Shown here: in pieces, positions 4,408-24,331 of the stretch
How positions within the stretch are numbered: the first letter of the stretch is position 1
Layout: every line of letters begins with the position of its first letter
Origin: an uncultured Gammaproteobacteria bacterium
Lineage (GTDB): Bacteria > Patescibacteriota > Patescibacteriia > Magasanikbacterales > GWA2-37-8
Direction: 5' to 3'
DNA length: 40,490 nt
NCBI GenBank assembly: GCA_964535515.1
Contig: CAZHTA010000004.1
Span: forward strand, 27,888-68,377
The notes under the pieces: generated by a model
What the model was told of the DNA's origin: nothing
The model's database searches: none
The model's input: the letters and a program-made list of their open reading frames with translations, nothing else
Position numbers and translations under genes: made by a program

Positions 4408-6441
4408 ATGGAAGAAAATATCTTGGAAAATCAAGCCGCACCAGCGGTGATACCAACCGACGCCGATATAAACTATTTCGGGTTGGTTAACTATCGTAAT
4501 CAAAATCGTAAGTTTGGTATTAAGACTGATGATCGCCGTCGACATATGTATGTTGTCGGTAAAACCGGTATGGGGAAAACGACGATTTTGGAGAATATGG
4601 TGTTAAATGACATCTACGCCGGACACGGGGTTGGTTTGGTTGATCCGCACGGTGATTTTGCTGAAAAGATTATTGACTATATCCCAGCTAATCGTATCAA
4701 CGATGTCGTATATTTCAATCCCGCGGATATTGATTTCCCGATTGGTTTTAATATTTTAGAAACTGTAAAGGCGGAGCACAAACATTTGGTGGCTTCTGGT
4801 TTGATGGGGGTATTTAAAAAGATCTGGCCAGATGTGTGGAGTTCACGTATGGAATATATCTTGAACAACACCCTTTTGGCATTGTTAGATTATCCTGGTA
4901 CAACTTTGCTTGGTATTAATCGTTTATTAGCCGATGCTGACTATCGTAAGCGCGTCGTGCATAATTTGAAAGATCCAGTAGTAAAAGCTTTTTGGCAAAA
5001 TGAGTTTGCGGCTTACAATGATAAATATCGCCAAGAAGCGGTAGCGCCAATTCAAAACAAAATTGGTCAGTTTTTGTCTGCTTCGGTCATCCGTAATATC
5101 GTCGCTCAAGTAAAATCACGAATTAACATTCGTGAGATTATGGATAGTAAAAAGATTTTTATCATGAACTTGTCTAAAGGAAGAATTGGTGAGGATAACT
5201 CGCGTCTTTTGGGTGGTATGCTTATCACCAAGATTCAGTTGGCAGCCATGGAACGCGTAGACACTCCAGAGAAGGATCGTAAGGATTTCTTTTTGTACGT
5301 TGATGAGTTTCAGAACTTTGCTACTGAGAGTTTTGCCAACATTTTGTCAGAAGCACGTAAATATCGCTTGGATTTGACCATGGCTCATCAGTATATGGAG
5401 CAACTAGAAGAGGAAGTCTTGGCGGCTGTTATCGGTAACGTAGGGAGTATTATCACTTTTCGGGTTGGTTCTACTGATGCAGAGATTTTGGCTAAGGAGT
5501 TTATTCCAACTTTTATTGAAGAAGACTTGATTAATTTACCAAAGTTTCATATTTACCTTAAACTAATGATCGACGGCATTGCTTCGCGACCATTTTCAGC
5601 TTTGACTTTGCCACCGATTGCTCAGACTACCCATAGTGAAGAAAAAGTAATTAAGGTTTCGCGTGAACGTTATGCTGTACCACGTGAAAATATTGAAGAC
5701 AAGATCGCGCGTTGGAGTGGCATGGTGATTATTCCAGAAGATGAAGCGAGCGAATTAGAAGTAGACGAAGAAGAGGAAATGTTTGAGAAACAGGTAAAGA
5801 AAGAAGAAAAGAAAGTGGTGGAAAAGCCAAAAGAAGAAGTGAGATCTGAGTCTAAGCCTGAACCAGCTGTTGTGGTGGAGGATACCGTAAAGCCAGAAGT
5901 TGTACAGGATTTACCAAAGACAGAACCAGCGCGGAATGTTTCAGAACCAATCGTGCAACCGCAGCCAGTTGTTAGACCGGTACAGTCTAGTTCGGCACCT
6001 CAAGTGAATCGGACATCCAATAATATTTCAGGGGGCAATCGAAATGGTGGTCAGGGTAGTAGCCAGAATTTTCAGTCTTCTGGTAAAAAGAAAAAAAAGA
6101 AACACCATAGTAGTCCAGGTGGTGGCACCGCGGTTTCTTTGGTGGATACAAGTCAAAAAGGTATTTCTCTAAATAGTTTAAGTCAAGAAAGAAACGGGGG
6201 AGGACAACAACGTGATCAGCAACGTTCGCAACAGCAGAGCGTGCAGTCTCCGGTAAAGGCACAAGAAGAAAGGAGAGAGGTTCCTCAAGTTCCAGTTGTT
6301 CAAAAACCACTTGGACCAGAGACGATCGGCTTGTTGCCAAAGGAGCAACATCAGAATCCGCCGGTTGGAGTTAAATCTCAATCACCCCATCAGCCAGTAA
6401 CGATTTTGCCTGGTCAGGTTAACAAGGTAGAAGAGAATTAA
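4408..6441 (+). CDS. P-loop NTPase of the TraD/TraG/VirD4 (type IV coupling protein-like) family with a roughly 230-aa low-complexity C-terminal tail
   Basis: Walker A is VVGKTGMGKTT and the Walker B-like motif is FFLYVDEFQNF, followed by LTMAHQYMEQL. No N-terminal TM segments. The tail is rich in E/K/P/Q/S/G and includes KKKKKKHH. Confidence 0.6.
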   Translation: MEENILENQAAPAVIPTDADINYFGLVNYRNQNRKFGIKTDDRRRHMYVVGKTGMGKTTILENMVLNDIYAGHGVGLVDPHGDFAEKIIDYIPANRINDVVYFNPADIDFPIGFNILETVKAEHKHLVASGLMGVFKKIWPDVWSSRMEYILNNTLLALLDYPGTTLLGINRLLADADYRKRVVHNLKDPVVKAFWQNEFAAYNDKYRQEAVAPIQNKIGQFLSASVIRNIVAQVKSRINIREIMDSKKIFIMNLSKGRIGEDNSRLLGGMLITKIQLAAMERVDTPEKDRKDFFLYVDEFQNFATESFANILSEARKYRLDLTMAHQYMEQLEEEVLAAVIGNVGSIITFRVGSTDAEILAKEFIPTFIEEDLINLPKFHIYLKLMIDGIASRPFSALTLPPIAQTTHSEEKVIKVSRERYAVPRENIEDKIARWSGMVIIPEDEASELEVDEEEEMFEKQVKKEEKKVVEKPKEEVRSESKPEPAVVVEDTVKPEVVQDLPKTEPARNVSEPIVQPQPVVRPVQSSSAPQVNRTSNNISGGNRNGGQGSSQNFQSSGKKKKKKHHSSPGGGTAVSLVDTSQKGISLNSLSQERNGGGQQRDQQRSQQQSVQSPVKAQEERREVPQVPVVQKPLGPETIGLLPKEQHQNPPVGVKSQSPHQPVTILPGQVNKVEEN

Positions 6442-6451
6442 TATTTAAATT

Positions 6452-6481
6452 ACCCGCCCACAATTTAGGGGGCGGGTTTTT
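6452..6481 (+). terminator. Intrinsic terminator
   Basis: ACCCGCCC-loop-GGGCGGGT followed by TTTT. Confidence 0.8.
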
Positions 6482-6509
6482 GACTTTTTTGGCTAAAATT
6501 TGGTAAGAT
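6480..6509 (+). promoter_or_regulatory. Sigma70-like promoter for the swivel-domain operon (TTGACT, 18 nt, TGgTAAGAT)
   Basis: The -35 TTGACT is at 6480-6485 and the extended -10 TAAGAT at 6504-6509. The ATG at 6519 is only 9 nt downstream. Confidence 0.5.
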
Positions 6510-6518
6510 ATACCCTAT

Positions 6519-7973
6519 ATGAAACAAGACTATATCCTCAAACAGCGCAAAAAGAACATGTATATTTTCCCTAATGTTTTTGTGATTGGGCGGGTTTTTA
6601 CGGGCAGTTTGAACAAAATATTGAATGGTAAGAATTTTGGAGAAACAATGTGTATTTACAAGGACGATATGATGTATTGGTATGCTTCGGATAGTATGGT
6701 AAAAGCGGCGGCGCAAGAATTTTTTAAGAAATTAAAAAAGAATTCAAATTTTGTTTCTTCGTCTATTCGTATTTTTTCTAAACGTAGTAATTTTTTTCTG
6801 TCTTGGGTAAAAAAAGTTAGTAAGAGGGATTTATCAAAAATGACCAACAAGGAGCTGGATGTTTTTTGGGATAAGTATTTAGAGCTCTATGAGTCTAGCT
6901 ATATCTATAGTGAAGCATTGGTAATTTGTTTTGAAGAATACCTTTCTGGTCTTTTGTCTTCGTATTTAAAGAAATTAGTAAAAAGTGATACTGAAGCATC
7001 TCGGGTTCAAAATGTTCTTGCTTCGCCTTTGGAAAAATCATTTGTGAAAAGAGAAGAAGATGATTTGTTGAATTTGGCGTTAAAGATTAAAAACGGCAAG
7101 GTGAAGGATGTAGAATTGGCGTTAGAAAAACACGTGGAGAAGTATCAATGGGTGCCGTTTGATTATGGTATGTATATTTGGGATAAAAAATATTTTAAAA
7201 AGATTTTGCAAGGGATGTTAAAAAATGCAGATTTAGAGAATCGGATTGTGGCTAGTAAGAAATATTTGAAGTATTTGTCTTTGGAACAGTTGCGTTTAGA
7301 AAAGGAATTAAAGATTGACAAGCAATACAAAAAATATTTTATGGCGATGCGCCAGACGGGGTATTTGTTAGATTACAAAAAGGAAATTTTTACCCAGATA
7401 CATTTTTATGCAGAGAAGGTATTGGCGGAGACAGGTAAACGTTTGGGTGTAAAAAGAGATCTGGTGCAATATTATTTGCCAGGAGAAATCAAGACTGCCT
7501 TAAAGGAAGGTAAAGTGGTTGGCAAGAAAATATTAGAAGCGAGACAAAAACATTGTTATGTTCGTTGGTTTGATAATAGTATCGAAGCAGTGATAGACAA
7601 GCCGGATAGTTTGTTGGCTAAATTTTTATTAAAAGAAGATCCGACTTCAGCTAAATTTGAGGGTATTATTGCTTCGGCGGGAAAATGTATTGGAAAGGTA
7701 AAGATTTTACATAGTGCGTTAGAAGTAGACAAGGTGAAATTGGGTGATATTTTAGTTGCACCAATGACTAGTCCAGATTATGTTCCGGCGATGCGTTTGG
7801 CTGGGGCAATTATTACTGATGAGGGCGGGGTGATGTGTCACGCGGCGATTGTGTCGCGTGAATTAGGTATCCCGTGTGTGGTTGGTACGAAAAATGCCAC
7901 AAAGTTTTTACATGACGGTGACGAAGTGGAAGTGGATGCTAATCATAATTCGGTGAGGATAATTCGCAGATAG
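6519..7973 (+). CDS. Swivel-domain paralog 1: uncharacterised N-terminal domain + C-terminal PEP-utilizer (phosphohistidine) mobile domain
   Basis: The C-terminus GDILVAPMTSPDYVPAMRLAGAIITDEGGVMCHAAIVSRELGIPCVVGT aligns with the E. coli PpsA His-domain (GGRTCHAAIIARELGIP). The N-terminal part carries KHVEKYQWVPFDYG. Confidence 0.85.
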   Translation: MKQDYILKQRKKNMYIFPNVFVIGRVFTGSLNKILNGKNFGETMCIYKDDMMYWYASDSMVKAAAQEFFKKLKKNSNFVSSSIRIFSKRSNFFLSWVKKVSKRDLSKMTNKELDVFWDKYLELYESSYIYSEALVICFEEYLSGLLSSYLKKLVKSDTEASRVQNVLASPLEKSFVKREEDDLLNLALKIKNGKVKDVELALEKHVEKYQWVPFDYGMYIWDKKYFKKILQGMLKNADLENRIVASKKYLKYLSLEQLRLEKELKIDKQYKKYFMAMRQTGYLLDYKKEIFTQIHFYAEKVLAETGKRLGVKRDLVQYYLPGEIKTALKEGKVVGKKILEARQKHCYVRWFDNSIEAVIDKPDSLLAKFLLKEDPTSAKFEGIIASAGKCIGKVKILHSALEVDKVKLGDILVAPMTSPDYVPAMRLAGAIITDEGGVMCHAAIVSRELGIPCVVGTKNATKFLHDGDEVEVDANHNSVRIIRR

Positions 7974-7974
7974 C

Positions 7975-9411
7975 ATGTTAAATAGCAGCGATTCAAAACA
8001 TATTCGTGAAACTAATTGGTATCGCCAAGGTGGGGCGATTAATTTGTTTTATTGTTTTAGTCCGTTTCAATCTATTCGCGAAACCATTGGTTATGATGGT
8101 TGTATTATGTATCAAGAGGATGCTGTTAATACTGCTTTTTTTGAACGAGACAGAGAGGATAAGTTAGCACTTAAATTTATCCGAGCAAGCGGGGAAGACA
8201 AATATTTGGTGGACAGATGGATAAGCGTTTGGCGTATACGCATATTAAAGTTAAATAAGTTTTTAGATAAAAGTTTTTCTAAACCATTGGAAACGTGGTC
8301 TGATGCGGAGTTGGTTAATTTTTTCCATCGTTATGATCATTTGGCTTTAAGTCATTGGAAGAAGGGTGTTTTGTGTGAATGGACTGACCCTAATGGCTGG
8401 AATATAGTAAAGACGGAGGCTTTAAAATATTGCCCTAATCTTAGTGATGAAGATATTAATCTGTTAACATCACCAGAAAAGTTAACTGTAGTGCAGAAAG
8501 AATTAGTTGATCGGTTGGTTTTAATGAAAAAACAAAAGCAGGGTTTAAGTATTGAGCGCGAGCTTAAGAAACATGTTAGTAAATATTTTTGGATTCGCAA
8601 TAATTGGGCGTTTGTTTATGATTTAAAAGAAAAAGATTTTCAAAAGGTTATTAACAAAGAAATGTTAAAGTTGGAGAAAGTTGAAAGACAAGTGAAAGAA
8701 ATTAATGAATATATACGTGAGATTAAGAAAAAGAAAAAGATTTTAATCAAGAAAAAATCAGTACCACGTAAAGTACAAAATGTTTTTTACTTTTTTACTC
8801 AATTAACCGATTGGCGCGATGAGAGGAAAAAATTTGCTGCTTGTTTGCCAAATCATTATTTATATAAAATATTGAAAGTATTGGCGAAGAGAAATAATAT
8901 TTCTGAGGAGTTGGTTGGTTTATTAATATGGTTTGAAATTAGTGGTTGGAAATTATCTGTAAAAACAATAGATAATTTAAAAAGACGAGGGCAGGGCTGG
9001 ATCTATTATTGTCGTAAAAATAAACAATGCCAACAAGTTTATGGTAGTGAGGCAAAAAAGATTTTTAATGATTTGGTTAAGGCGTTAGATAAAGGTGAAT
9101 TGCGAGGGTTAATAGCAAACAAGGGTGTTGTGATTGGTAAAGCGAAGATTGTGGAAGTACAAGCTGATTTTAGTAAAGTAAAAAAAGGGGATATTATTGT
9201 TGCTAACATGACGCGCCCAGATTATGTACCGATTATGAAATTGGCAGGTGGAATAATTACCAATGAGGGAGGGATTACTTGTCACGCGGCAATTGTTAGT
9301 CGTGAGTTAAATATTCCTTGTATAATTGGGACACAGGTGGCTACGGATGTTTTAAAAGACGGTGATGTTATAGAAGTTGATGCGGATAATGGTGTAATTA
9401 GAAAAAAATAA
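7975..9411 (+). CDS. Swivel-domain paralog 2
   Basis: GDIIVANMTRPDYVPIMKLAGGIITNEGGITCHAAIVSRELNIPCIIGT. N-terminal motif KHVSKYFWIRNNWA. 1-nt gap to the upstream gene. Confidence 0.85.
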   Translation: MLNSSDSKHIRETNWYRQGGAINLFYCFSPFQSIRETIGYDGCIMYQEDAVNTAFFERDREDKLALKFIRASGEDKYLVDRWISVWRIRILKLNKFLDKSFSKPLETWSDAELVNFFHRYDHLALSHWKKGVLCEWTDPNGWNIVKTEALKYCPNLSDEDINLLTSPEKLTVVQKELVDRLVLMKKQKQGLSIERELKKHVSKYFWIRNNWAFVYDLKEKDFQKVINKEMLKLEKVERQVKEINEYIREIKKKKKILIKKKSVPRKVQNVFYFFTQLTDWRDERKKFAACLPNHYLYKILKVLAKRNNISEELVGLLIWFEISGWKLSVKTIDNLKRRGQGWIYYCRKNKQCQQVYGSEAKKIFNDLVKALDKGELRGLIANKGVVIGKAKIVEVQADFSKVKKGDIIVANMTRPDYVPIMKLAGGIITNEGGITCHAAIVSRELNIPCIIGTQVATDVLKDGDVIEVDADNGVIRKK

Positions 9412-9414
9412 TTT

Positions 9415-10890
9415 ATGCAAGATATTAATAGGTTGACTGAGAAAGATTGGTATTTTCAAGGGTTCAATGGTGTCCCAGCTCTTTTGTATGGTCCCGCTTG
9501 GTCTATGGCGCGTGATATGCCAAAATTTTTAGGTTTTGGCTATTCTGTTTGTGTTGAATATTTCACTAAGGATGTTTGTTATTATCTATATTCTTGGGAT
9601 GATTTATATAAAATTCATGATGAATTATTAAAACGTGTTAAACGCGACAAAAATTATTTGCGTTATTTATCAAAATCAGATGAATGTTTATGTAAAGAAG
9701 TGATTAAAGAATATAAAATTTTAGGTGGGAAAGATTGGTGCAGTGCTTCCATAAAAGAATTATTTTCGGGTTGGCGTAAAGCCAATGATTTATATGCGCA
9801 TCTTTTAGGGGTTTCGCATATTGTAGAAGGGTTTAGTTTAACCACAGAAGATCGAATTAGAGCTTTGATTAATGAAGTTTTTCCTAATGATTCCGGAGCT
9901 TTGTCGTTGCTCACTACTCCCAAGACGCATTCTTTTATGTCTATTGAGCACTATGAGTTATGTTTAATAGCTCATGGTGTTAAACGTATTAAATTGGGTA
10001 AGTGTACTGTTGAAAATATTTTGGTTAATAAGGTGATAAATAAAAAAATATGTCTTCATCAGGAGAAATATTATTGGAAATTAAATGGTTATACGTCGGC
10101 TAAGTTTCTAGACGACAAGTATTTTGCCAAAGAAATATGTGGTTTGTTAAACAAGAAAGTTAATTTTGAAAAATTTATTCATGATTTTGAAAATTTGTCC
10201 AAAAGATTAGATGGAAAAAAGAAACTTCTTAAAAAAGTGAAAAATCAAGAATTACTTGATTTATTAAAAATTTCTGATGCGTTGTTTGTGATCCACGATC
10301 GTCGTAAAGAGCATATGACGCAATCAATTACTTATTTGGAATTAATTTTAAGTGAGATTGCTAAGCGATTTAAAATACCTTTATCTGATTTGCACTATAT
10401 TCGTCCGTCAGAGTTAGAAAAGTTACCTAAGATTTGGTCGGAGTTAAAAAAGAGGAAAGAACATAGCATATACATTTTATATCCAGAAGGAGAGATGCCA
10501 GTATTAACTGGTTTAAAAGCAAAAAAATATTTTGAAAAAATTGAAAAGAATAAAAAATTAGATAAGATTTCGGAGATTAAAGGGAATGGTGCGTCGCCAG
10601 GAAAAGTAAGAGGCGTAGTTAAGGTGTGCCGCGGTGAAAAAGAATTAGGTAAAATGAAAGAAGGAGATATTCTCGTGGCGTGTATGACACAGCCTGAATT
10701 TTTACCGGCTTTGAGAAAAGCTAAGGCCGTCATTACTGATGAGGGTGGTTTGACTTGTCATGCTGCGATAGTGGCAAGGGAGTTAGGAATTCCTTGTGTG
10801 ATTGGAACAAAAGTAGCTACTAAAGTTTTAAAAGATGGTGATATGGTAGAAGTTGATGCGGATAATGGTATAATTAGGAGAATAAAATAG
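9415..10890 (+). CDS. Swivel-domain paralog 3
   Basis: GDILVACMTQPEFLPALRKAKAVITDEGGLTCHAAIVARELGIPCVIGT. N-terminal motif HQEKYYWKLNGYT. Confidence 0.85.
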   Translation: MQDINRLTEKDWYFQGFNGVPALLYGPAWSMARDMPKFLGFGYSVCVEYFTKDVCYYLYSWDDLYKIHDELLKRVKRDKNYLRYLSKSDECLCKEVIKEYKILGGKDWCSASIKELFSGWRKANDLYAHLLGVSHIVEGFSLTTEDRIRALINEVFPNDSGALSLLTTPKTHSFMSIEHYELCLIAHGVKRIKLGKCTVENILVNKVINKKICLHQEKYYWKLNGYTSAKFLDDKYFAKEICGLLNKKVNFEKFIHDFENLSKRLDGKKKLLKKVKNQELLDLLKISDALFVIHDRRKEHMTQSITYLELILSEIAKRFKIPLSDLHYIRPSELEKLPKIWSELKKRKEHSIYILYPEGEMPVLTGLKAKKYFEKIEKNKKLDKISEIKGNGASPGKVRGVVKVCRGEKELGKMKEGDILVACMTQPEFLPALRKAKAVITDEGGLTCHAAIVARELGIPCVIGTKVATKVLKDGDMVEVDADNGIIRRIK

Positions 10891-10892
10891 TT

Positions 10893-10926
10893 CTTTAAAA
10901 CACAAGCACCCGACCGAAGTCGAGTG
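10893..10926 (-). terminator. Intrinsic terminator of the island gene
   Basis: The minus strand reads CACTCGAC-TTCG-GTCGGGTG followed by CTTGTGTTTT. It starts 35 nt after the stop codon. Confidence 0.6.
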
Positions 10927-10960
10927 CGTTGTGCACGTTGTTGGGGCCTGCTCCAATGAG

Positions 10961-11452
10961 CTAGGCCAGTCGCGTCGCGGTACCGTCGCCGAGGTGGAGC
11001 TCGTACACGGCGCTGCTCGCAGCCTCGAGCTTGAGGCTCTCGAGCACCGGACGTCCGGCCACGAGGACGACGTCCGGGCTGCCCTCGGCGAGGATCAGCA
11101 TGCCGTACGTTTCCCGCAGGTGCATGAGCGTGGCTTCGCGGGACGGCATTCGGAACCGGTCCAACGTCGTCTGCGCGTTGCAGGCGAGCGCGATGTTCCA
11201 CCCTCCGTTGCCGTTGGGGACGCCCGAGCTGGGGTCACCCAGCATGGGATCGTACCACTCGATCTCCTGGAAGATGTCCAGCGCCTCGGCCGTGTCGATG
11301 TGACGCCGGGCGGTCCCGCAGAAGACTCGACGCTTGTCGGGGAGGGGCAGGTGCGGTACGAGCCGTTCGATCTCGCTTCTTCCTTTGCTCGTGAGACCGG
11401 GGTCCGCACCGGGACCCTTCGAACCGTGGGTGATCAATAGGACTCGCGCCAT
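10961..11452 (-). CDS. SixA/PGAM-like histidine-phosphatase-fold protein (163 aa) with degenerate catalytic motifs; high GC3
   Basis: MARVLLITHGSKGPGADPGLTSKGRSEIERL...RRVFCGTARRHIDTAEAL follows the RHG...LTxxGRxQ...SPxxRAxxTA pattern. It has THG in place of RHG and VLVAGRPV in place of the distal SH motif. AGGAGAA lies 6 nt upstream of the ATG at 11452. The 198-aa track ORF is an upstream extension. Confidence 0.6.
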   Translation of the reverse strand: MARVLLITHGSKGPGADPGLTSKGRSEIERLVPHLPLPDKRRVFCGTARRHIDTAEALDIFQEIEWYDPMLGDPSSGVPNGNGGWNIALACNAQTTLDRFRMPSREATLMHLRETYGMLILAEGSPDVVLVAGRPVLESLKLEAASSAVYELHLGDGTATRLA

Positions 11453-11473
11453 CTCTCGTTCTCCTATGGTTGT

Positions 11474-11488
11474 GCGACACGCTGTCGC
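11474..11488. promoter_or_regulatory. Inverted repeat GCGACA-CGC-TGTCGC in the 5' region of the island gene (operator or hairpin candidate)
   Basis: Perfect 6-bp arms with a 3-nt spacer, about 20 nt upstream of the SD on the minus strand. Confidence 0.3.
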
Positions 11489-11605
11489 TTGGTCCCAAAT
11501 AAACGTGCAGTTTGTTTCAGATAGTGCTCGGATTTGGTTAAATCCAGGCAAAATCATGGTACCAAACGTTTCAGTATAGTATATTTTCGCTGTTTTGTCA
11601 ATATT

Positions 11606-13087
11606 ATGTACAAATCACCTCAATTTAAATCAAATAAACTAGAACTTACGGTTAGTCGTCCGTATGTTCCTTTGTGTGCTAACTATTTTTTCCAAAGCTA
11701 CAGTAATCCAGAATATTTTAAGAAGTTTTATAAAATTAACTTTTTTACTCGTTTATTAGCAATTAATGCGGATTTTTATTATGGCCTAGAAGCAAAAGAT
11801 TTTGGCTATGTTCTTTTTGGACAAGCGGCAAAGTATGGTAGTCATAGTAAAATTAAAAAGAAAAATCTTAAGGGTATTTTGCACATTTTTGATCGGACCT
11901 ATAAATTTGGTGATTCGTTATTGGAATTTACTTTGCAAGTTAAGAAAACAGATTTTTCTGAATATTCAAAGAAGCAATTATTAGAGGTGTTTGGAAAATT
12001 TTCGAAAGATTATGTTGTTTTTTGTACTGCTTTATTGGGTATGAATATGCAGTATGTTGTCGAAGATGGTTTGCGTGAGTTTCTACGAAGTGATAAAAAC
12101 GCAGAAGAGGAGCTTGCGATTTTGACTTTTCCTGATAAACAAAATGTTCTTGTTCAAGAACTAATGGACTTATTGCGTTTACGAATTAAATTAGAAAAAG
12201 TTGGTGTTAAGAATTTGGAAAAATGTAAGACCAAGGAGCTTGGCTTACTAAAGAAGCATGTTGATAAGTACGGTTGGATCAATGCTCGTGGTGCCATTAA
12301 TGAAGGATGGACGGTAAAAGAGGTTTTTGATCGGGCGATGGCAGAAAAGAATTGTGCTAAACGTTTGGTTGAGATAGTTAAGAATCAAAAAGAGCATCAA
12401 AAACAAGTTCGAGATATATTTAAAACAAAAAAACCTAATGCGGAAATTAGGGATTTAATAAAAATCGCCAAAGAGCTGGTATATTTTCGCACCTACCGTA
12501 CAGATTATCTTAATTGGATGTTTTTTAATATTCGTCCTTTATTAAATGCGTTGGCAGGTAAGATGGGTATTAGTTTTGAGGATATTATATATTATCTACC
12601 AAAAGAAATCATGACTAAGAAAAAAGTGTCTGAAAAAGAGGTTGTTCGTCGCAAGGAAGGTTACGCGATATTGTTAGCTAAACCTTATGAGGTATTATTC
12701 TCCTCTGATCCTAAGAAAATATTGGAATGGAAAAAGAAACATACTGAGGTATTAGGTGGCAATGTTACGGAAGTTAAGGGTATGTCTGCATACAAAGGTA
12801 TTGTTCGTGGTAAGGCTGTGTTGGTATTGAAAAAGGCTGATATGGTAAAGGTTAAGTCGGGGGATGTTTTAATCACTTTTATGACTACGCCAGATATGGT
12901 ATCGGTTATGCAGAAAGCAATAGCGTTTGTTACTGATGAGGGTGGTATTACATGCCATGCGGCGATTGTAGCACGGGAGATGAAGAGACCGTGTGTAACA
13001 GGGACCAAAATTGCTACTAAGGTTTTTAAAGATGGCGATGAAGTAGAAGTGGATGCGAATACTGGTGTAGTGAAAATTATTAAATAA
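11606..13087 (+). CDS. Swivel-domain paralog 4 (ATG 11606 preferred over the TTG 11534 of the track)
   Basis: GDVLITFMTTPDMVSVMQKAIAFVTDEGGITCHAAIVAREMKRPCVTGT. N-terminal motif KHVDKYGWINARGA. The 5' extension of the track ORF runs into island/intergenic sequence. Confidence 0.85.
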   Translation: MYKSPQFKSNKLELTVSRPYVPLCANYFFQSYSNPEYFKKFYKINFFTRLLAINADFYYGLEAKDFGYVLFGQAAKYGSHSKIKKKNLKGILHIFDRTYKFGDSLLEFTLQVKKTDFSEYSKKQLLEVFGKFSKDYVVFCTALLGMNMQYVVEDGLREFLRSDKNAEEELAILTFPDKQNVLVQELMDLLRLRIKLEKVGVKNLEKCKTKELGLLKKHVDKYGWINARGAINEGWTVKEVFDRAMAEKNCAKRLVEIVKNQKEHQKQVRDIFKTKKPNAEIRDLIKIAKELVYFRTYRTDYLNWMFFNIRPLLNALAGKMGISFEDIIYYLPKEIMTKKKVSEKEVVRRKEGYAILLAKPYEVLFSSDPKKILEWKKKHTEVLGGNVTEVKGMSAYKGIVRGKAVLVLKKADMVKVKSGDVLITFMTTPDMVSVMQKAIAFVTDEGGITCHAAIVAREMKRPCVTGTKIATKVFKDGDEVEVDANTGVVKIIK

Positions 13088-13117
13088 TTTGTTTATATAT
13101 TTTTAACTTATAAAAAT

Positions 13118-14200
13118 ATGGAAAGAGGACCAAGTTTAAGGCCAGAGGATATGCTAGTTGGCAATGATGGGGTGGATCAGAAAGCGCGAGGTGTAATTGA
13201 ATCACGTGATAGCGCCGTAGCTCATAATATTGAGCGTGGGGAAGGCTTATCATCTTCGCGTGTTGTTTTGGAGTTTATGCGTCATGGTAAAAAAGAAAAA
13301 GCGCCAGGCAAAGATGATCGTGATATACGCATTGTTCCGGAAGCGCGTGTGGCAGCAACGGAAAAAGGTAAAAAATTAGGAGCGCAAGCTGAGGTGTCGG
13401 TTGTTTATGCTAGTCCGCGTAACCGTACTCAGGAATCTGCTGGCCGAGTTGCTTTGGGTAATCAATCAGAAATTACTGCGGATATGAGCTTAGAGGATAT
13501 TATGGTTAAAACAATGGAGCATAATGCTATTTTAATGCCTGATCAGTTAGAACGTTTGCGCGAGCTGTTGTCTCATCCAATGGAAGAATTAAATGCTGAA
13601 GAAAAGAAGGAGCTAAAACTTTTGTCGAGTAAAGGTAAAAAAATCATGGTTGATGAACGTTTGGATTTTACTGATGAAACAGAGGAGGGTCTAAAAGCTT
13701 TTATGGCTGGTCGTTATTTAGATCATGCTGTAAAGGATAGTGATCAGTTGGCAATTGCAAAGCATGATACTAAATTATCTACCTATACTCGTTCGGCTGG
13801 TAAGATCGCGGAGATTGTTTCTAAATATATTCAGGTGGGTAAAAATTTTAACAAAAGAGTAAGTGTTGATCCAGAGAAATATAAAAAATTCGGTAATCAA
13901 TTAGAAAGATATTTTGGTTCACACCAAGGTGTTGTAGAATGTTTTTTGTTGAAAGCAATCGAGAAAATAAAAGGTGTAAAAGAGCGTGATGAGATTTTGG
14001 CTTTGATGCCAGCAGGTTTTAAAGAGTTACAAGGTGTAAGGATTGGCATTGAGAACAATGGCAAAGGAGAACAGGTGATTGTTTTAGATGCCGAAGTTGA
14101 AGGAAGAAAGATTAATTTAGAATTAACCCCAGAGATTTTAATGGGTATGGTTAGTGATAGAGATGTGCTGGATGAACAATGTAAGAGTAGTGTGGAGTAA
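13118..14200 (+). CDS. Histidine phosphatase superfamily (PGAM-like) protein with a large internal insertion
   Basis: LEFMRHGKK (RHG), VVYASPRNRTQESA and the distal YFGSHQGVVE (SH motif). About 150 extra residues lie between the two half-sites. Native low GC. Confidence 0.7.
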   Translation: MERGPSLRPEDMLVGNDGVDQKARGVIESRDSAVAHNIERGEGLSSSRVVLEFMRHGKKEKAPGKDDRDIRIVPEARVAATEKGKKLGAQAEVSVVYASPRNRTQESAGRVALGNQSEITADMSLEDIMVKTMEHNAILMPDQLERLRELLSHPMEELNAEEKKELKLLSSKGKKIMVDERLDFTDETEEGLKAFMAGRYLDHAVKDSDQLAIAKHDTKLSTYTRSAGKIAEIVSKYIQVGKNFNKRVSVDPEKYKKFGNQLERYFGSHQGVVECFLLKAIEKIKGVKERDEILALMPAGFKELQGVRIGIENNGKGEQVIVLDAEVEGRKINLELTPEILMGMVSDRDVLDEQCKSSVE

Positions 14201-14210
14201 TATTGTTGTT

Positions 14211-15281
14211 ATGTCTATCGTTCCTGATAAATTTTTAAAAGGAGAGTGTTGGCTGAAAGATTGGGCGGGTCAGTGGGATCTTTTTATTTGTTTTTATTCA
14301 GGAGAAGATTATACCACCTTACTTAAAAAGTGGTTGGGTATTAATTTTGATAAATGTCTTTTTATTTATCACGATGGGTTTGTGGAGTGTTATTTAAATA
14401 AAAGATGTTTAGATATTTTGGGTAGAGAGATTAACGCGAGGGTTAAAGAGGATGTTTTGTGGATTGATAGGAATTGTAAAGATCTTAAAAAGAATACACA
14501 AATTTTCCTAAAATATTTTGCTGAGCATAAAAACGATTTGGTTGCGGAAGAGACATTGAAGAAGTTTTTGCAGTTGGTTAGCAATTGTTTTGCTGCGTAT
14601 ATTTCTAATAAATTAGCATTTGATTATTTGTCAGCAGATATATTAAAGAAAAAATGGAATGTGATGGAATCGGCACGTGTATACTCAGAATCGGTTTATA
14701 CGGCGTGTATAGAGTTTGTTCACAATTGGGGTAAACAAATGGCGAAAAAAGTTAAGATACCAAAGGATCTCTTTCTTTGTTGTTCGTTAAATGAAATTGA
14801 AACTTATTATCGATCGGGTAGATTACCAAGTGTTAGCGAGTTAAAGCGACGGTATTCGTTTAATGTGATACTTTCACAGAATGGTCAGAGTTTTTTATTG
14901 ACTGGCTCAGAGGCTAAGGCTGTTGAGAAAAAGATTATTAGTTCATTTGGCGACAGTAAAACCATTAAAGGCACCTGTGCCTATCCGGGGAAAGTAACGG
15001 GGCGGGTTAGAATTGTTTTTGATCCTAAAAAGATAAAAGATTTTAAAGATGGGGATATCTTGGTAACACCGATGACGCGACCGGAGTATCTTTCTCTAGT
15101 TAAAAAATCCGCTGGTTTTATTACTGATGCTGGCGGTATGCTTTCTCACGCCGCTATTACAGCGCGCGAGTTAAAGAAGCCGTGCGTGGTAGGTACCCAA
15201 GTGGCTACGCGTTTGTTAAAAAATGGAGATGAGGTGGAAGTGGATGCCAACAAAGGGATAGTTAATGTGATTAAAAGATAA
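14211..15281 (+). CDS. Swivel-domain paralog 5 (short, 356 aa; ATG 14211 preferred)
   Basis: GDILVTPMTRPEYLSLVKKSAGFITDAGGMLSHAAITARELKKPCVVGT. Confidence 0.85.
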   Translation: MSIVPDKFLKGECWLKDWAGQWDLFICFYSGEDYTTLLKKWLGINFDKCLFIYHDGFVECYLNKRCLDILGREINARVKEDVLWIDRNCKDLKKNTQIFLKYFAEHKNDLVAEETLKKFLQLVSNCFAAYISNKLAFDYLSADILKKKWNVMESARVYSESVYTACIEFVHNWGKQMAKKVKIPKDLFLCCSLNEIETYYRSGRLPSVSELKRRYSFNVILSQNGQSFLLTGSEAKAVEKKIISSFGDSKTIKGTCAYPGKVTGRVRIVFDPKKIKDFKDGDILVTPMTRPEYLSLVKKSAGFITDAGGMLSHAAITARELKKPCVVGTQVATRLLKNGDEVEVDANKGIVNVIKR

Positions 15282-15288
15282 TGATTTT

Positions 15289-16839
15289 ATGAAGGTGCTA
15301 AAAACTTTTCCTTTGGCTTTGACCAAAAAAACTGCTAGTCAGTTTAATAAGGCGTTTCATGCCAAGTTATTTACTTTGTTTGCTTCTTCGATGAGTGAAC
15401 TAATGCAGTTGGCTAAGGATTTTCCTGTGCATTATAAACATTGTTTGTGTTTTATTAAAGATGATTTAGGCCAGTGGTTTTTGGGCGCAGATAGCATCGA
15501 AAGAGTTAGGCGGTATATCATAAAAAAAGCTGATGAGGATTTTTCTCAGATAAATAAATATTATTTACGTTGGCAGAAAGACTGGGGTAAGTTTTTAATA
15601 TTAAACAGAAAATTAATTAGTTCAGATTTTAGTTCTTTGACTGACAAGCGGTTGTATAAAGTTTTTGATGAGTTTTATGATCTATATTTAAAAGTAGGTG
15701 GTGTGGCATATATTAGTGATGCCTTTATGTCCTCTGGGGAAAAAGATTGGCTGCAAGAGGTTATAAACCAAGAATTAAAACGCATTTATAAAGATATTGA
15801 AAAAGTAAAAAGGGTGGCGGCGGATTTGATTTCGCCAGTTCATCTTTCTTTTGTTTTGGAAGAAGAACTTGAATTATTAAAACTAGCTCCGGCGTTTATT
15901 AATCTTACTGGTAAATTGGTGGGTTTTAATAAGTTGTCCGCTAAACAACTAGCGCAGCTGGAACGTCATGCTGACAAATATTATTGGATGAATAATAACT
16001 ACTATAACGTAGAATTTTACGATGCATTTTCAGTATATACACATCTGGTCAATCTTTTAGATGGTTTGCAACAAGAAAAACGTAGCCTTAGTGATTTTTT
16101 GGCGGAGAGACAGCGCGAATTAAAGGAAAATAAAACGAGGCGTGAGGGGTTGATTAGTGATATTAAGCTACCAAAAAAGATTAAGAGCTTAATTCGGGTA
16201 GCTAATTTGTTTAGCAAGTGGAAAGACGTTCGGAAAAGTGGTGTGTATCGTGGCATGGCAATTTTTGATAAATTTTTGGGCGAGATAGCAATGCGTACTG
16301 GTTATACAAAAAAGGAAATTACTTTTTTAGTTTTTCCGGAGTTCAAGGATTTATTGTTAAATAGAAAAGATTTTCGGTTGGTTATAAAAGATCGTCAAAA
16401 GCAAATATTTTTTGTGGTGCGTCCGCACGACTATCTTTTGGTTAGCGGTCAAAAGGCGGATAAATATTTTGCTTGTTTGTCCGAAGGACTCAATGCTGAG
16501 ATGAAAGAATTCAAAGGAGCAGTGGCCTCCAAAGGAATCGCGCGCGGGGTGGTGCGGATGATAAGGAAAACAGAAGAGATGAAAGACTTTAAAAAAGGTG
16601 AAATTTTAGTTACCAACAATACTACACCAGAGTTTGTTCCAATCATGAAAAAGGCCGCAGCGATCATTACTGAACAAGGTGGTATAACCTCACATGCTGC
16701 TGTAGTTTCGCGTGAATTGCGTAAGCCGTGTATTATTGGTGTTAAAGGTATTACAACCATTTTAAAAACAGGGGTAGAGGTTGAAGTAGATGCTAATCAT
16801 GGTATAATTAAGATTATTAATAAAAGTTTAAAGAAATAA
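15289..16839 (+). CDS. Swivel-domain paralog 6
   Basis: GEILVTNNTTPEFVPIMKKAAAIITEQGGITSHAAVVSRELRKPCIIGV. N-terminal motif RHADKYYWMNNNYY. Confidence 0.85.
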   Translation: MKVLKTFPLALTKKTASQFNKAFHAKLFTLFASSMSELMQLAKDFPVHYKHCLCFIKDDLGQWFLGADSIERVRRYIIKKADEDFSQINKYYLRWQKDWGKFLILNRKLISSDFSSLTDKRLYKVFDEFYDLYLKVGGVAYISDAFMSSGEKDWLQEVINQELKRIYKDIEKVKRVAADLISPVHLSFVLEEELELLKLAPAFINLTGKLVGFNKLSAKQLAQLERHADKYYWMNNNYYNVEFYDAFSVYTHLVNLLDGLQQEKRSLSDFLAERQRELKENKTRREGLISDIKLPKKIKSLIRVANLFSKWKDVRKSGVYRGMAIFDKFLGEIAMRTGYTKKEITFLVFPEFKDLLLNRKDFRLVIKDRQKQIFFVVRPHDYLLVSGQKADKYFACLSEGLNAEMKEFKGAVASKGIARGVVRMIRKTEEMKDFKKGEILVTNNTTPEFVPIMKKAAAIITEQGGITSHAAVVSRELRKPCIIGVKGITTILKTGVEVEVDANHGIIKIINKSLKK

Positions 16840-16840
16840 T

Positions 16841-17827
16841 ATGCCAAAAGTTTCTCATATTAAGTTTTTTAAGAATATCTCTAAAAGTGATGTTGATATT
16901 GCTGGTGGTAAGGGTGCGTCTTTAGGTGAGATGACACAAGCCAAGATTCCAGTACCAAATGGTTTTGTGGTTTTAGCCGCAGCCTTTGATCGTTTTTTAG
17001 AAGAGACACAATTAAAAGAGGAAATTGTGGCACGGCTAAAGGAAGTTAACCCAGAAGATACTAATTCGGTTGATCGTATTAGTGCGGTTATTCGTGATGC
17101 GATTCATGATCGGTCAATGCCTAAAGATTTGCAGAAAGAAATTTTAGGAGCATTTACTAAGTTAGATGCTAAATTTGTGGCTGTACGTTCATCGGCTACA
17201 GCAGAGGACTCATCTGTTGCTAGCTGGGCAGGGGAGCTGGAGAGTTATTTAAATACGAGTAAAAAAGATTTGATTGAACGGGTGCGTCGTTGTTGGTCGT
17301 CGTTGTTTACTCCGCGTGCTATTTTTTATCGTCATGAAAAAGGGTTAATTGACCATTATGTCTCAGTAGCGGTAGTAGTACAAAAAATGGTGCAGTCAGA
17401 AATTTCTGGCATTGCTTTTACTGTTCATCCAGTAACGGAAGATTATGACCAGATGATTATTGAAGCGGGGTATGGTTTGGGTGAAGCGATTGTCTCTGGA
17501 CAAATTACACCTGATAGCTATGTGATTAGCAAGGGTAGTATGGAGATTATGGATACTTATGTTAGTTCACAAGCTCGTCAGTTAATTCGTAAGAAATCTG
17601 CTAAGAGCAAAGGGGATGAAGAAAACACTTCAAATGAGTGGGTAAATTTAGGTAAAAAAGGTGAAAAACAAAAGGTCGACAACAAAACGGTCTTGGCCCT
17701 GGCCAAAGTATTTAAACGGATTGAGGACCATTACAAGTTTCCGTGTGATATCGAATGGGCTATGGAAAAGAAAAAAATATATATTACCCAAAGTCGTCCG
17801 ATTACTACTTTAAAGAAGAAAAAGTAG
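16841..17827 (+). CDS. Stand-alone PpsA/PPDK N-terminal ATP-grasp (nucleotide-binding) domain protein
   Basis: Collinear with E. coli PpsA residues about 1-345: GGKGASLGEM, IPVPNGFVV, VAVRSSATAEDS..SWAGE, AVVVQKMV, GIAFTVHP, EAGYGLGEAIVSG and DIEWAMEKKKIYITQSRPIT. It ends there, with no His or TIM-barrel domain. 1-nt gap to paralog 6. Confidence 0.9.
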   Translation: MPKVSHIKFFKNISKSDVDIAGGKGASLGEMTQAKIPVPNGFVVLAAAFDRFLEETQLKEEIVARLKEVNPEDTNSVDRISAVIRDAIHDRSMPKDLQKEILGAFTKLDAKFVAVRSSATAEDSSVASWAGELESYLNTSKKDLIERVRRCWSSLFTPRAIFYRHEKGLIDHYVSVAVVVQKMVQSEISGIAFTVHPVTEDYDQMIIEAGYGLGEAIVSGQITPDSYVISKGSMEIMDTYVSSQARQLIRKKSAKSKGDEENTSNEWVNLGKKGEKQKVDNKTVLALAKVFKRIEDHYKFPCDIEWAMEKKKIYITQSRPITTLKKKK

Positions 17828-17852: not shown

Positions 17853-18974
17853 ATGAAAGGAAATAGCAGGTTAGTGATAATTAGTTTAGCGTTATTAGTG
17901 CTTGGTGTTTTAAGTCGTAGTGCTTACTTAATTATCTTTGGTATTATTGGTTTGTATATTACTTACAAAAAGAATCAGGCCAGTTATCCAACAGGAACGA
18001 ATTTCCTGGTGGTCATATTTTCTGACCTATTGGATGAATTAAAAAAGAAATATCCACAATTTAATTTGGATAAGTTTTTACATAATATAAAAGTCAACAA
18101 AGTCGATGATAATCAAAATGTTAATTTTAATCGTATGCCTTTGAATAATGCCGGTAGTGCCAAAAAAGTTTTGGGGATAATTTTTGGTGTTATTATCTTA
18201 GTAATTTTAGTTGCTAAGTTTGTTATTGTTATCCCTGCTGGATATGTTGGTGTTTACAACCTGTTTGGTAAAGTAAGTGATCGACCGTTGTATTCAGGTT
18301 TGAATTTTGTTAACCCACTTGGTTCGGTAGAAAAGATGGATGTCAGAATCCAGGATTACACCATGAGTATCGCTCCTAACGAAGGAGCAAAAACAGGGGA
18401 CGATTCGATTTATGCCCTCAGTAAAGAAGGTTTAAGTGTTTCGTTGGACATTACCGTTCTTTATCGTTTGTCTCAAGAAAAAGCACCAGTATTGTTTAAA
18501 GAGATTGGACAGAACTATAGTGAAATTGTTGTTCGTCCAGAAATTCGTAGTGCGATTCGTGAGATAGTGGCCACTTATGATGTAAAAGATATTTATTCAG
18601 AAAAACGAGCGGAAGCTAATCAAAAACTTGTTGATTTACTAAAGAGTAAAGTTGAGCCACGCGGGATAATTATTGAGGAAGTGTTGTTACGTAATGTTCA
18701 GTTGCCAAAAAATTTAGCGGACAGTATTGAGTTAAAATTACAGTCCGAACAAGAAGCTCAGCGTTATGATTTCTTGCTTGAGCAAGAAACAAAAGAAGCG
18801 GAGAGGAAAAGGATCGAAGCTGCTGGCCAGCGAGATTCACAGAAGATTATTAGCGAAGGTTTAACTCCGGCATACTTGCAGTATCTGTATATTACTAGCT
18901 TGAAAGACCGTCAGGGCACGATATATATCCCAACTAATCCAAGCAATGGTTTGCCATCTTTTAAAGGTCTTTAG
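17853..18974 (+). CDS. SPFH/band-7 (prohibitin/HflC-like) membrane protein
   Basis: TM segments followed by IPAGYVGVYNLFGKV..., LSVSLDITVLYR, VRPEIRSAIREIV and a coiled-coil tail. Confidence 0.8.
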   Translation: MKGNSRLVIISLALLVLGVLSRSAYLIIFGIIGLYITYKKNQASYPTGTNFLVVIFSDLLDELKKKYPQFNLDKFLHNIKVNKVDDNQNVNFNRMPLNNAGSAKKVLGIIFGVIILVILVAKFVIVIPAGYVGVYNLFGKVSDRPLYSGLNFVNPLGSVEKMDVRIQDYTMSIAPNEGAKTGDDSIYALSKEGLSVSLDITVLYRLSQEKAPVLFKEIGQNYSEIVVRPEIRSAIREIVATYDVKDIYSEKRAEANQKLVDLLKSKVEPRGIIIEEVLLRNVQLPKNLADSIELKLQSEQEAQRYDFLLEQETKEAERKRIEAAGQRDSQKIISEGLTPAYLQYLYITSLKDRQGTIYIPTNPSNGLPSFKGL

Positions 18975-18980
18975 AACGCA

Positions 18981-19009
18981 TTGACAGAAACACGTTTTTG
19001 TGCTATAAT
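18981..19009 (+). promoter_or_regulatory. Consensus sigma70 promoter TTGACA-17 nt-TATAAT
   Basis: ttgacagaaacacgtttttgtgctataat. The -35 is at 18981-18986 and the -10 at 19004-19009. Confidence 0.7.
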
Positions 19010-19149
19010 GTCAACAATTAACTTGGGCAATGTAGTAAGGGCCTAAAAGCCAACAGGACGTTCCCAGTATTTCCAGGCTGGATTAAACCAGTCGGAGGTC
19101 GAATTTATCTATCTCAAACAACATTTTGGGAACAAAACAATCAAAATAT

Positions 19150-19479
19150 ATGGCTTTTGGTACTGACAGACAAATGTTTGATGTTGACTTGACCTGTGCT
19201 AAGTGCGGGTCTCACATCGCTCAGTTGCCTTTTCAACCATCTGGTGATCGACCGGTTTACTGTTCTGACTGCAACCGTGCTTTCCGCCAGAGTCGTCCTG
19301 ATGATCGTGGTAGCCGTGGTGGTAGTTTTGGTGGACGCTCAGATGGCCCTCGCCAGATGTACAGCGTTAACCTAAGCTGCGCTTCCTGCGGAACTGCGAT
19401 TACCCAACTACCGTTCCAGCCAACTGGTGATAAGCCAGTTTACTGCCGGGACTGTATGCAGGCTCGTCGTAATGGTTAA
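19150..19479 (+). CDS. Tandem CxxC-x18-CxxC zinc-ribbon protein with an RGG-like linker (ATG 19150 preferred over TTG 19126)
   Basis: Two repeats, CAKCGSHIAQLPFQPSGDRPVYCSDC and CASCGTAITQLPFQPTGDKPVYCRDC, joined by DDRGSRGGSFGGRSDG. G+C is visibly higher than in the neighbours. Confidence 0.75.
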   Translation: MAFGTDRQMFDVDLTCAKCGSHIAQLPFQPSGDRPVYCSDCNRAFRQSRPDDRGSRGGSFGGRSDGPRQMYSVNLSCASCGTAITQLPFQPTGDKPVYCRDCMQARRNG

Positions 19480-24277: not shown

Positions 24278-24331
24278 AACCTCCTGCTTTGTCTCCAAAT
24301 ATTTAGAGATAAAACAGTAGGGCGGTCGGAT
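24253..24331 (-). terminator. Possible terminator for the island-2 ORF: 10-bp inverted repeat with a large loop and a U-rich tail on the minus strand
   Basis: ATCCGACCGC (24264-24273, inside the 3' end of the GtrA-like CDS) pairs with GCGGTCGGAT (24322-24331, the island edge). The 48-nt loop holds an inner palindrome, GTCTCCAAATATTTAGAGAT (24291-24310). The minus strand continues TTTTGTTTTCC. Confidence 0.3.

Follow-up and report, generated by a model that had tools for sequence, protein, structure and literature searches.

The stretch of DNA analysed here (40,490 nucleotides, referred to below as the window), which belongs to a tiny-genome host from the Magasanikbacteria (CPR), encodes one stand-alone ATP-grasp protein, G, and eight partner proteins, W1-W8. 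We put at roughly 70% the probability that together they form a split small-molecule dikinase of the rifampin phosphotransferase (RPH) type, with G as the hub and the partners as its many spokes; the arrangement suggests one "charger" that supplies phosphate to many acceptor-specific modules. The split architecture of dikinases as such is already known; the unusual feature is the one-to-many wiring, unlike the one-to-one organization of the known pairs.

Six of the partners and G are encoded on the plus strand of one array. W1 (6519-7973, 484 aa) consists of an RPH-like substrate-binding N-domain and a swivel His domain carrying His441. It is followed by W2 (7975-9411, 478 aa, PF00391 E 8e-26), also built of an N-domain and a swivel, W3 (9415-10890, 491 aa, E 4e-28), W4 (11606-13087, 493 aa, E 1e-23), the short-class W5 with a truncated N-domain (14211-15281, 356 aa, E 3e-25) and W6 (15289-16839, 516 aa, E 5e-26), and the array is closed by G (16841-17827, 328 aa). 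Our ORF check reproduced the coordinates and the common direction of the six partner genes as given in a preliminary description of this DNA, and the PF00391 domain that it expected at each C-terminus was found in all six (E 1e-23 to 4e-28). Alternative upstream starts are present for W4 (TTG at 11534) and W5 (GTG at 14154); the protein database contains a 493-aa version of the former and a 375-aa version of the latter. The six paralogs listed in that description do exist, but two more had been overlooked, W7 (33469-34830, plus strand, 453 aa, PF00391 E 5e-25) and the short-class W8 (35467-36561, plus strand, 364 aa, E 1e-22), which brings the total to eight. The six-frame scan accordingly gave eight swivel motifs and a single copy of the ATP-grasp domain, counts that refer to the 40-kb window; the genome may encode further ATP-grasp proteins. 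Clear domains could be assigned to seven of the nine genes in the array, PF00391 to six and PF01326 alone to one. As to the spacing, described earlier as mostly 1-10 nt, this holds for the gaps of 1, 3, 10, 7 and 1 nt, but not for one of 30 nt (third in the order 1, 3, 30, 10, 7, 1) or for the 715-nt stretch between W3 and W4. Directly upstream of the array lies a gene for a VirD4/TrwB-like ATPase with a low-complexity tail (4408-6441, plus strand, PF10412 E 3e-10), which we mention as context only; such a gene occupies the same position in the loci L001, L006, L010 and L011.

G is the ATP-grasp domain alone, as had been proposed (PF01326 E 1e-95, profile 2-315 of 328), and matches the PpsA model (E 3e-101) and the RPH model (E 5e-81) in their N-terminal parts. 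Its orthologs, 65-90% identical and about 325 aa long, fall into more than 100 Magasanikbacteria protein clusters and are all stand-alone proteins. This conservation bears directly on the idea that the array is pseudogene debris, i.e., pieces of broken full-length PpsA or RPH genes. The summed length of G and W1 (328 + 484 aa) is indeed near the 867 aa of RPH, and the best sequence matches of G and of the swivel domains are PpsA models. However, the partner genes begin and end at proper start and stop codons, their orthologs are conserved, and their N-domain family comprises 4453 cluster representatives, mostly of about 480-520 aa; the paralogs, which the preliminary description had feared might be fragments, are full substrate-domain plus swivel modules. 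We regard the debris reading, whose probability is negligible, as effectively refuted by the conserved stand-alone G and the intact partner ORFs.

The swivel motif T/S-x-x-G-G-x-x-x-H (e.g., ITDEGGVMCH) is present in all eight window paralogs; the conserved phospho-acceptor histidine noted earlier stands in a GG..[CS]HAA context in six out of six array members, and the PpsA-type threonine preceding it is kept by 92% of the family members. W1 and W2 can be aligned end to end. Mean identity among the paralogs is 52% for the swivel domains and 25% for the N-domains: the similarity of the former is consistent with docking on one common ATP-grasp protein, and the divergence of the latter with differing substrates. 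The N-domain HMM matches W5 in three pieces, and W7 is recognized by the local swivel HMM with E 9e-47 and by the N-domain HMM with E 3e-6. The N-domains, previously considered unassignable, have a fold like that of the RPH rifampin-binding domain. When a partner protein was compared by Foldseek, as had been recommended for the RPH substrate-binding domain, the best six matches were all RPH (E 4e-14, TMq 0.61), and the paralog profile aligns onto RPH residues 648-866. In this alignment the family-conserved D285 and K288 (84% and 90%, respectively, of 126 family members) coincide with Glu667 and Lys670 of RPH, which are part of its block-9 catalytic motif (PMC4844700). The position of RPH Arg666 is not conserved, and a conserved arginine lies three residues further on. 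The R-D-x-R-K motif is retained in W2 and is degenerate in W4 (R-T-Y-R-T); W4, W5 and W8 do not keep the acid and the lysine of block 9, and some partners may be inactive or work by another route.

The survey of co-occurrence that had been suggested gave one conserved ATP-grasp gene per locus: in the Magasanikbacteria loci G is preceded by 11, 5, at least 6, 3-4, 1 or 0 partners, and in every array it is the terminal gene, separated from its neighbor by 1 to about 20 nt. The minimal locus, L010, consists of G and one partner, D1, which is the ortholog of W3 (69% identity; W3 and R6 share 53%). Ortholog pairs are also kept for W1 (R1) and W6 (R5, 45% identity). The relationship of W2 to R2 is weak (28%), as is the resemblance of W5 to A3 and B4, both of them short paralogs; W8 is 33% identical over 258 aa to R11, which adjoins the ATP-grasp gene in RIFOXYC2_FULL_42_28. 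For W4, no ortholog was found in five other genomes, and its one distant metagenome relative is 20% identical. In other genomes, one ATP-grasp domain is joined to 2-4 partner modules within a single ORF; the architectures among the best 148 family representatives are G-(N-H)3, G-(N-H)2, (N-H)2-G and (N-H)3-G-N-H, and the reading frame of a 2309-aa fusion is open throughout under the standard code.

One could suppose that just one partner, e.g., W3, works with G and that the remaining copies are redundant or decaying duplicates without distinct function. The locus with D1 alone would fit this, as would L011 with no partner at all, the paralog of L007 divided into two ORFs (B5a and B5b), the degenerate catalytic motifs of W4, W5 and W8, and the several members that lack an ortholog in the other genomes compared. 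We nevertheless find it unlikely, since the ORFs of the eight copies in the window are all intact and encode the catalytic histidine and a well-conserved swivel domain, several have orthologs elsewhere at 45-69% identity, and the A5/B6 ortholog pair of the relatives has a dN/dS of 0.11. The maintenance of 8-11 genes, each about 1.5 kb long, in the typically small genomes of this group points to selection as well, and the multi-module fusion ORFs have been maintained too.

A partnership of G with many spokes also has to be weighed against independence of the two components, with the partners served by another donor or acting as small-molecule shuttles, regulators or pseudo-enzymes, and G playing a separate role. 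HpeH by itself shifts phosphate between phosphorylated and unphosphorylated small-molecule substrates (PMC12167813), which makes an activity independent of the ATP-grasp protein conceivable for the partners as well, and a PPS-like protein is reported to be a regulator in Haloferax (PMC10948481). In L011, the nearest of the relatives that have a long contig, G has no adjacent partner, so either the partners are encoded elsewhere or G has another role there; W7 and W8 are about 16-19 kb distant from G. Still, such independence seems improbable to us: the window has no PEP-binding domain or HPr-like carrier, G always closes the array at close range, the fusion ORFs tie it physically to several partner modules, and both components are required in all characterized split relatives (PMC12167813). 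The one-charger, many-carriers scheme of the preliminary description is supported by the full modules, by the loci with 0-11 partners and by the fusion ORFs.

The 715-nt stretch between W3 and W4 contains a GC-rich gene on the minus strand (10961-11452, 163 aa, 67% GC, GC3 0.85) with 'THG...AGR' motifs. Its link to histidine phosphatases is weak (His_Phos_1, E 0.005); it aligns over its full length with a minus-strand gene of another array, L007:1862-2359 (34% identity), and its product is absent from the protein database. On the same strand, a terminator-like hairpin with a T-run (10906-10927; a 9-pair stem with 6 GC pairs, tail TTGTGTTTTA) lies 3' of the gene, and a promoter-like site, a consensus match only (11573-11601, TTGACA-17-TATACT, 11/12), lies upstream. 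With such an opposite-strand gene in its midst, which has a promoter-like site and a terminator of its own, the array may not be transcribed as a single uninterrupted operon. The opposite-strand genes of the arrays have a GC3 near 0.85, although the genomes have 37-40% GC.

Two phosphatases had gone unrecognized. The first, a histidine phosphatase superfamily protein encoded between W4 and W5 (13118-14200, plus strand, 360 aa, PF00300 E 8e-6), has an intact RHG motif and is 41% identical over 323 aa to the product of an equivalently placed gene of RIFOXYC2_FULL_42_28. The second, a HAD-family phosphatase (34844-35461, plus strand, PF13419 E 6e-21), is flanked by W7 and W8 within a glycan-biosynthesis cluster with glycosyltransferase, Wzx, Wzy and FemAB genes. 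Genes of both types recur in the arrays, and their products probably dephosphorylate the reaction products or reset the phospho-His carriers. As for the substrate, it is probably a sugar or an envelope precursor or decoration, at least for W7 and W8.

The reaction cycle that we infer would proceed as follows. G would bind ATP and transfer its beta-phosphate in trans to the swivel histidine of any of W1-W8, with the release of AMP and Pi; the swivel domain would then swing back to its own N-domain of the RPH rifampin-binding type, where the phosphate would pass to an acceptor specific to each partner.

Among the known systems, RPH (PDB 5hv1, 5fbs) is the best structural match of the partner for both the substrate-binding and the swivel domains, and most members of the partner family keep counterparts of its block-9 acid and lysine, W4, W5 and W8 being exceptions. 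However, RPH forms one polypeptide chain and has a single substrate domain while the window genes are split, and its sequence identity to the partners is just 15-19%. The RPH equivalog model gave 60-72 bits against a cut-off of 999, and the NF041857 and NF000283 scores (60-273 and 45-196 bits) were likewise below their cut-offs of 999 and 1700. PEP synthase and PPDK are the nearest sequence relatives of G (E 3e-101) and likewise of the swivel domains, with E about 1e-38 and a score of 160 bits to PDB 8a8e, but they possess the PF02896 TIM barrel, whereas the acceptor domain here is RPH-like. PF02896 is absent from all the proteins scanned, in agreement with the earlier statement that the window has no PEP/pyruvate-binding barrel. 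The NCBIfam PpsA and PPDK models cover the ATP-grasp or swivel parts only, with scores that fall far short of their cut-offs, and this identity was rejected in view of the lacking barrel and the PpsA equivalog scores of 108-340 bits against cut-offs of 598-740.

With the PTS the system shares the logic of one general phosphoryl charger and many substrate-specific modules, an analogy and not a membership. Enzyme I of the PTS carries a homologous swivel domain, but the PTS donor is PEP, while here it is presumably ATP via the ATP-grasp domain; no HPr, EII or transport component was found among the window proteins scanned, and identity with enzyme I was rejected because its models match the swivel part alone (31-42 bits, with cut-offs of 342-824). 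For the location of W7 and W8 in a glycan cluster there is a precedent in Cj1418, a single-chain enzyme of the ATP-grasp/phospho-His dikinase family. This L-glutamine kinase (EC 2.7.3.13) is ATP-dependent and is encoded in a surface-polysaccharide locus, where it serves the synthesis of the capsule O-methyl phosphoramidate of Campylobacter (PMC6429109); the remaining genes of the phosphoramidate pathway were not found in the window.

A parallel in organization is provided by HpeHI, CreHI and the phenylphosphate synthase PpsAB. A subfamily of two-component dikinases has now been described to which CreHI and HpeHI belong, and the literature bears out both the domain order of RPH (ATP-grasp, substrate-binding, His domain) and the use of phenylphosphate synthase as a split precedent in the preliminary description (PMC12167813, PMC4844700). 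As in the window, where PF01326 stands alone, the ATP-grasp component of these systems is a separate protein, and the second component combines an RPH-like substrate domain with a C-terminal swivel bearing T/S-x-x-G-G-x-x-x-H (PMC12167813). Their reaction, ATP + acceptor -> AMP + Pi + phospho-acceptor via phospho-His, is presumed here too. The catalytic histidine of HpeH is residue 581, near the C-terminus (PMC12167813), while the partners described here have about 490 or 360 aa and are matched by the NCBIfam PRK08296 models at the swivel end only; the PpsA-type threonine kept by 92% of their family is a further point of difference. HpeHI, CreHI and PpsAB act on phenolics and belong to catabolic operons, whereas the present array is found in a CPR host with phosphatase genes alongside. 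Above all, they are one-to-one pairs, in contrast to the ratio of one ATP-grasp protein to eight partners in the window and to 0-11 in its relatives.

The array consists of six plus-strand ORFs encoding the partner proteins W1-W6 (6519-7973, 7975-9411, 9415-10890, 11606-13087, 14211-15281 and 15289-16839), each with a C-terminal swivel domain (PF00391 in six of six, E-values from 1e-23 to 4e-28), and of the plus-strand gene G (16841-17827), whose product is the PF01326 ATP-grasp domain alone (E 1e-95). To this extent the preliminary description was accurate, as it was in denying the presence of a PEP/pyruvate TIM barrel, which occurs in none of the window proteins scanned. The six partners align over their whole length at ~27-30% identity, the catalytic His lying within an invariant C-terminal block with the motif GG..[CS]HAA; among the window paralogs, mean identity is 52% for the swivel domains and 25% for the N-terminal domains. 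Matches to the NCBIfam models of PpsA, PPDK and RPH (rifampin phosphotransferase) are confined to the ATP-grasp or swivel parts and fall far under the cut-offs. In PADLOC, neither the paralogs nor G nor the phosphatases matched a defence system. The count of six paralogs holds for the array but not for the whole window: a six-frame scan of the 40 kb with purpose-built HMMs yields eight swivel motifs in all and a single ATP-grasp domain, the two additional partners, W7 (453 aa, 33469-34830) and W8 (364 aa, 35467-36561), being encoded downstream of the array with a HAD phosphatase gene between them (34844-35461). This trio is embedded in a cluster of FemAB, Wzx, GT4, GT2, Wzy and formyltransferase genes. 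A single operon without interruption is not established, because a minus-strand gene with its own promoter-like site and terminator hairpin (10961-11452) is interposed. Also encoded within the array, at 13118-14200, is a member of the histidine phosphatase superfamily whose RHG motif is intact; it has an ortholog (41% identity) at the equivalent relative position in another genome. The window is part of a Candidatus Magasanikbacteria contig. Nearly all its genes are on the plus strand, and Rfam gave no match in it. GC skew is strongly positive along the window (0.2-0.4 per kb), the exceptions being the GC-rich islands and the stretches at 25-27 kb and 38-40 kb.

The N-terminal domains, initially regarded as unassignable, are placed by structure comparison and profile alignment as RPH-like. 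The AF2 model of W1, built from a 13-sequence alignment, is confident (pLDDT 86, pTM 0.85), RPH-Lm structures fill the first six places among its Foldseek matches (E 4e-14, TMq 0.61), and the paralog profile aligns to RPH residues 648-866. The N-domain profile alone has no PDB match by sequence, so that the link to RPH requires either the swivel anchor or structure comparison. Conserved polar residues of the N-domain in the 126-member family alignment are H205, D285, R287, K288, E304, R308, E323 and R342; in the HMM alignment D285 falls on RPH Glu667 and K288 on RPH Lys670, both part of the block-9 Arg-Glu...Lys motif, which Stogios et al. (PMC4844700) found to be critical to the second phosphotransfer step and to be shared by clades as far apart as the distant ones. 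The block-9 Arg is displaced in the family by three positions relative to RPH, and W4, W5 and W8, three of the eight partners, have a degenerate form of the motif. Fold and profile alignment thus identify the partners as complete members of the RPH superfamily, each joining a substrate domain to a swivel domain, and not as fragments.

Loci of other genomes were fetched via orthologs of G, of which there are more than 100 stand-alone ones (~325 aa, 65-90% identity), and their gene neighbourhoods were compared at the locus level. The common order is a VirD4/TrwB-like ATPase gene, the array, G and a zinc-finger gene, while the number of partners before G varies. There are 11 in RIFOXYC2_FULL_42_28 (L001 + L005), together with two histidine phosphatases, a Fic protein and a HAD protein; five in L006, with a minus-strand histidine phosphatase; at least six in L007, one of them split into two ORFs, with histidine phosphatases; three to four in L009, from a 55% GC genome, with a HAD protein and two minus-strand histidine phosphatases; one, 69% identical to W3, in L010; and none in L011, whose G is 86% identical to that of the window, the last two loci containing no other array genes. 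Orthologous pairs exist for some partners: W1, W3 and W6 correspond to R1 (56%), R6 (53%) and R5 (45%) of RIFOXYC2_FULL_42_28, and A5 of L006 to B6 of L007 (62%); for other partners, the genomes examined contain no counterpart. Identity among W1 orthologs is 56-68%, and a scan of a genome collection with them found a single genome, already among those compared, while a metagenome scan with the W4 N-domain found just one relative (20% identity). The split paralog of L007 (L007:5030-5632 + 5764-6492), an ortholog of A4 of L006 (77-82% identity), suggests a frameshift or ongoing pseudogenisation within the array. The Fic-domain protein of RIFOXYC2_FULL_42_28, encoded among the swivel paralogs (L001:16838-17878) and possibly having an N-terminal HTH, has no counterpart in the window.

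The VirD4/TrwB-like ATPase gene lies directly upstream of the array (window 4408-6441; L001:8009-9934, L006:1-1807, L010:6473-8470, L011:8028-9962) or, where the array is missing, directly upstream of G. Its product has no obvious N-terminal membrane segment, possesses a long low-complexity Q/S/P/K-rich tail and gave HerA/mad8-like matches in PADLOC, the only such matches among the genes checked; its position next to the array may reflect either a functional link or plain synteny. After G, every locus encodes a small protein whose treble-clef zinc finger (PF23477) is duplicated (window 19126-19479; L005:11127-11459, L006:11144-11467, L007:11141-11464, L010:11144-11464, L011:11162-11485). In the window a gene of an SPFH/Band-7 membrane protein (17853-18974) is located between the two, and a perfect -35/-10 promoter match is predicted at 18981-19009.

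The minus-strand gene at 10961-11452 (163 aa) lies inside an island of 63-68% GC (10900-11530), and its GC3 is 0.85 vs 0.29-0.37 in the neighbours. The reading of the island as an assembly chimera or a foreign insert was rejected, as the protein can be aligned from end to end (34% identity) with the product of a minus-strand gene of the L007 array (L007:1862-2359) and as comparable GC-rich minus-strand genes occur in independent assemblies. Among them are orthologous histidine phosphatase genes just upstream of G (L006:9054-9683, L007:8143-8775 and L009:9056-9952, all on the minus strand), with 62-65% GC in genomes of 37-55% GC; overall, the opposite-strand array genes of this kind have 62-67% GC and GC3 of 0.81-0.85. 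For the L006/L007 phosphatase pair dN/dS is 0.34 and pS 0.45, which we estimate to be near the saturation level for such skewed third-position composition, and the flanking genes are synonymously saturated (pS 0.71-0.78). Since high GC3 is kept while synonymous sites of the pair and its flanks are near or at saturation, the high GC looks, from these sequence comparisons, to be something maintained and not the remnant of a recent transfer. The 10961-11452 protein itself has no homolog, not even an identical entry, in a 5.8-billion protein set, was not found by exact-sequence look-up in a protein database, and is without relatives among metagenome contigs and plasmids; hhalign showed no relation to the RHE-type phosphatases of loci L006, L007 and L009, and its single-sequence AF2 model gave no usable fold (pLDDT 40). 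A second GC-rich segment (~24330-24615, up to 66% GC) lies between a GtrA-like gene and infA, in an intergenic gap of ~535 nt in the window vs 42-180 nt in four relatives. Its likeliest ORF, a 73-aa minus-strand candidate (24395-24616), has no Pfam or PADLOC match and is absent from the protein collection. Neither island has flanking direct repeats.

Judging from its homologs, RPH and the two-component small-molecule dikinases HpeHI, CreHI and PpsAB (phenylphosphate synthase), the system is expected to catalyse the reaction ATP + acceptor -> AMP + Pi + phospho-acceptor, via phospho-His on the swivel domain, and we infer that a single G could charge all partners in trans. With HpeHI, CreHI and PpsAB, neither component is dispensable, and an HpeH variant with Gln in place of the His is inactive (PMC12167813). 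Among the indirect evidence, what most strongly favours the one-to-many reading is the existence of fusions that physically tie one ATP-grasp domain to several partner modules. Among the best 148 representatives of the N-domain family, which comprises 4453 cluster representatives at E <= 1e-3 and 264 at E <= 1e-30, most are single N-H proteins (N, substrate-binding domain; H, swivel domain), fifteen are N-H-N-H and three (N-H)3; those including the ATP-grasp domain are G-(N-H)3 (two cases), G-(N-H)2, (N-H)2-G and (N-H)3-G-N-H. Giant single ORFs (P0017, P0016, P0019, P0021, P0030, P0056, P0077, P0143) contain two to four partner modules, several with one ATP-grasp domain, and reach 2309 aa; the ORF of this length (P0017; L008:2012-8941, GCA_053531335.1) is not interrupted by any stop when read in the standard code. 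Caveats to charging by G are the degenerate catalytic motif in three of the eight partners, the G of L011 without adjacent partners, and the ability of HpeH alone to shuttle phosphate between small molecules (PMC12167813).

As for the substrates, the glycan cluster and the HAD phosphatase neighbour of W7 and W8, along with the location of R11, the nearest relative of W8, adjoining G in RIFOXYC2_FULL_42_28, suggest that the acceptor of at least these two partners may be sugar- or envelope-related. L-glutamine kinase is a member of the same ATP-grasp/phospho-His dikinase family. In Campylobacter it makes the first intermediate of capsule decoration, a precedent for a kinase in a surface-glycan locus (PMC6429109). 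Two roles would fit the recurrent array phosphatases: they may dephosphorylate the product, which happens in the Hpe and phenol pathways (PMC12167813), or they may reset the phospho-His carriers. Taken as a whole, the system of Magasanikbacteria and other CPR bacteria might be an ATP-driven, PTS-like phosphorylation hub, in which one conserved ATP-grasp charger would serve fast-turning-over, acceptor-specific swivel proteins (0-11 per locus, some fused into giant multi-headed forms); these would act on a wide variety of small molecules from the host or the environment and on envelope precursors by trapping, activating or neutralising them, with dedicated phosphatases, including the extreme-GC opposite-strand genes, as resetters or brakes; we consider this reading tentative, with a probability of about 0.3. 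The glycan-gene link and the recurrent phosphatases offer starting hypotheses on function, and the GC-rich opposite-strand genes are a separate compositional puzzle.

CPR bacteria are described as possessing reduced genomes and few biosynthetic pathways (PMC11665869), which makes an array of 8-11 genes of ~1.5 kb each a notable investment. The literature search returned nothing specific on this arrangement in CPR, and one resistome survey merely counted rph-like genes. The N-domain family, with more than 4,000 cluster representatives and an acceptor domain for which Pfam has no model, is likewise undescribed in the literature searched. The split architecture as such is already known, and the precedents named in the preliminary description are correct; what appears undescribed in that literature is the one-to-many wiring, the copy-number variation from 0 to 11 among relatives, the fusions with several heads, the accompanying phosphatases and the occurrence in CPR bacteria. 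If one ATP-grasp subunit is shared by the acceptor modules, ATP-dependent phosphorylation would here follow a modular logic that is new. The known split RPH-type dikinases are one-to-one pairs only and act on phenolic substrates, whereas here one ATP-grasp gene is accompanied by up to eleven diverged acceptor modules and by natural multi-headed fusions.
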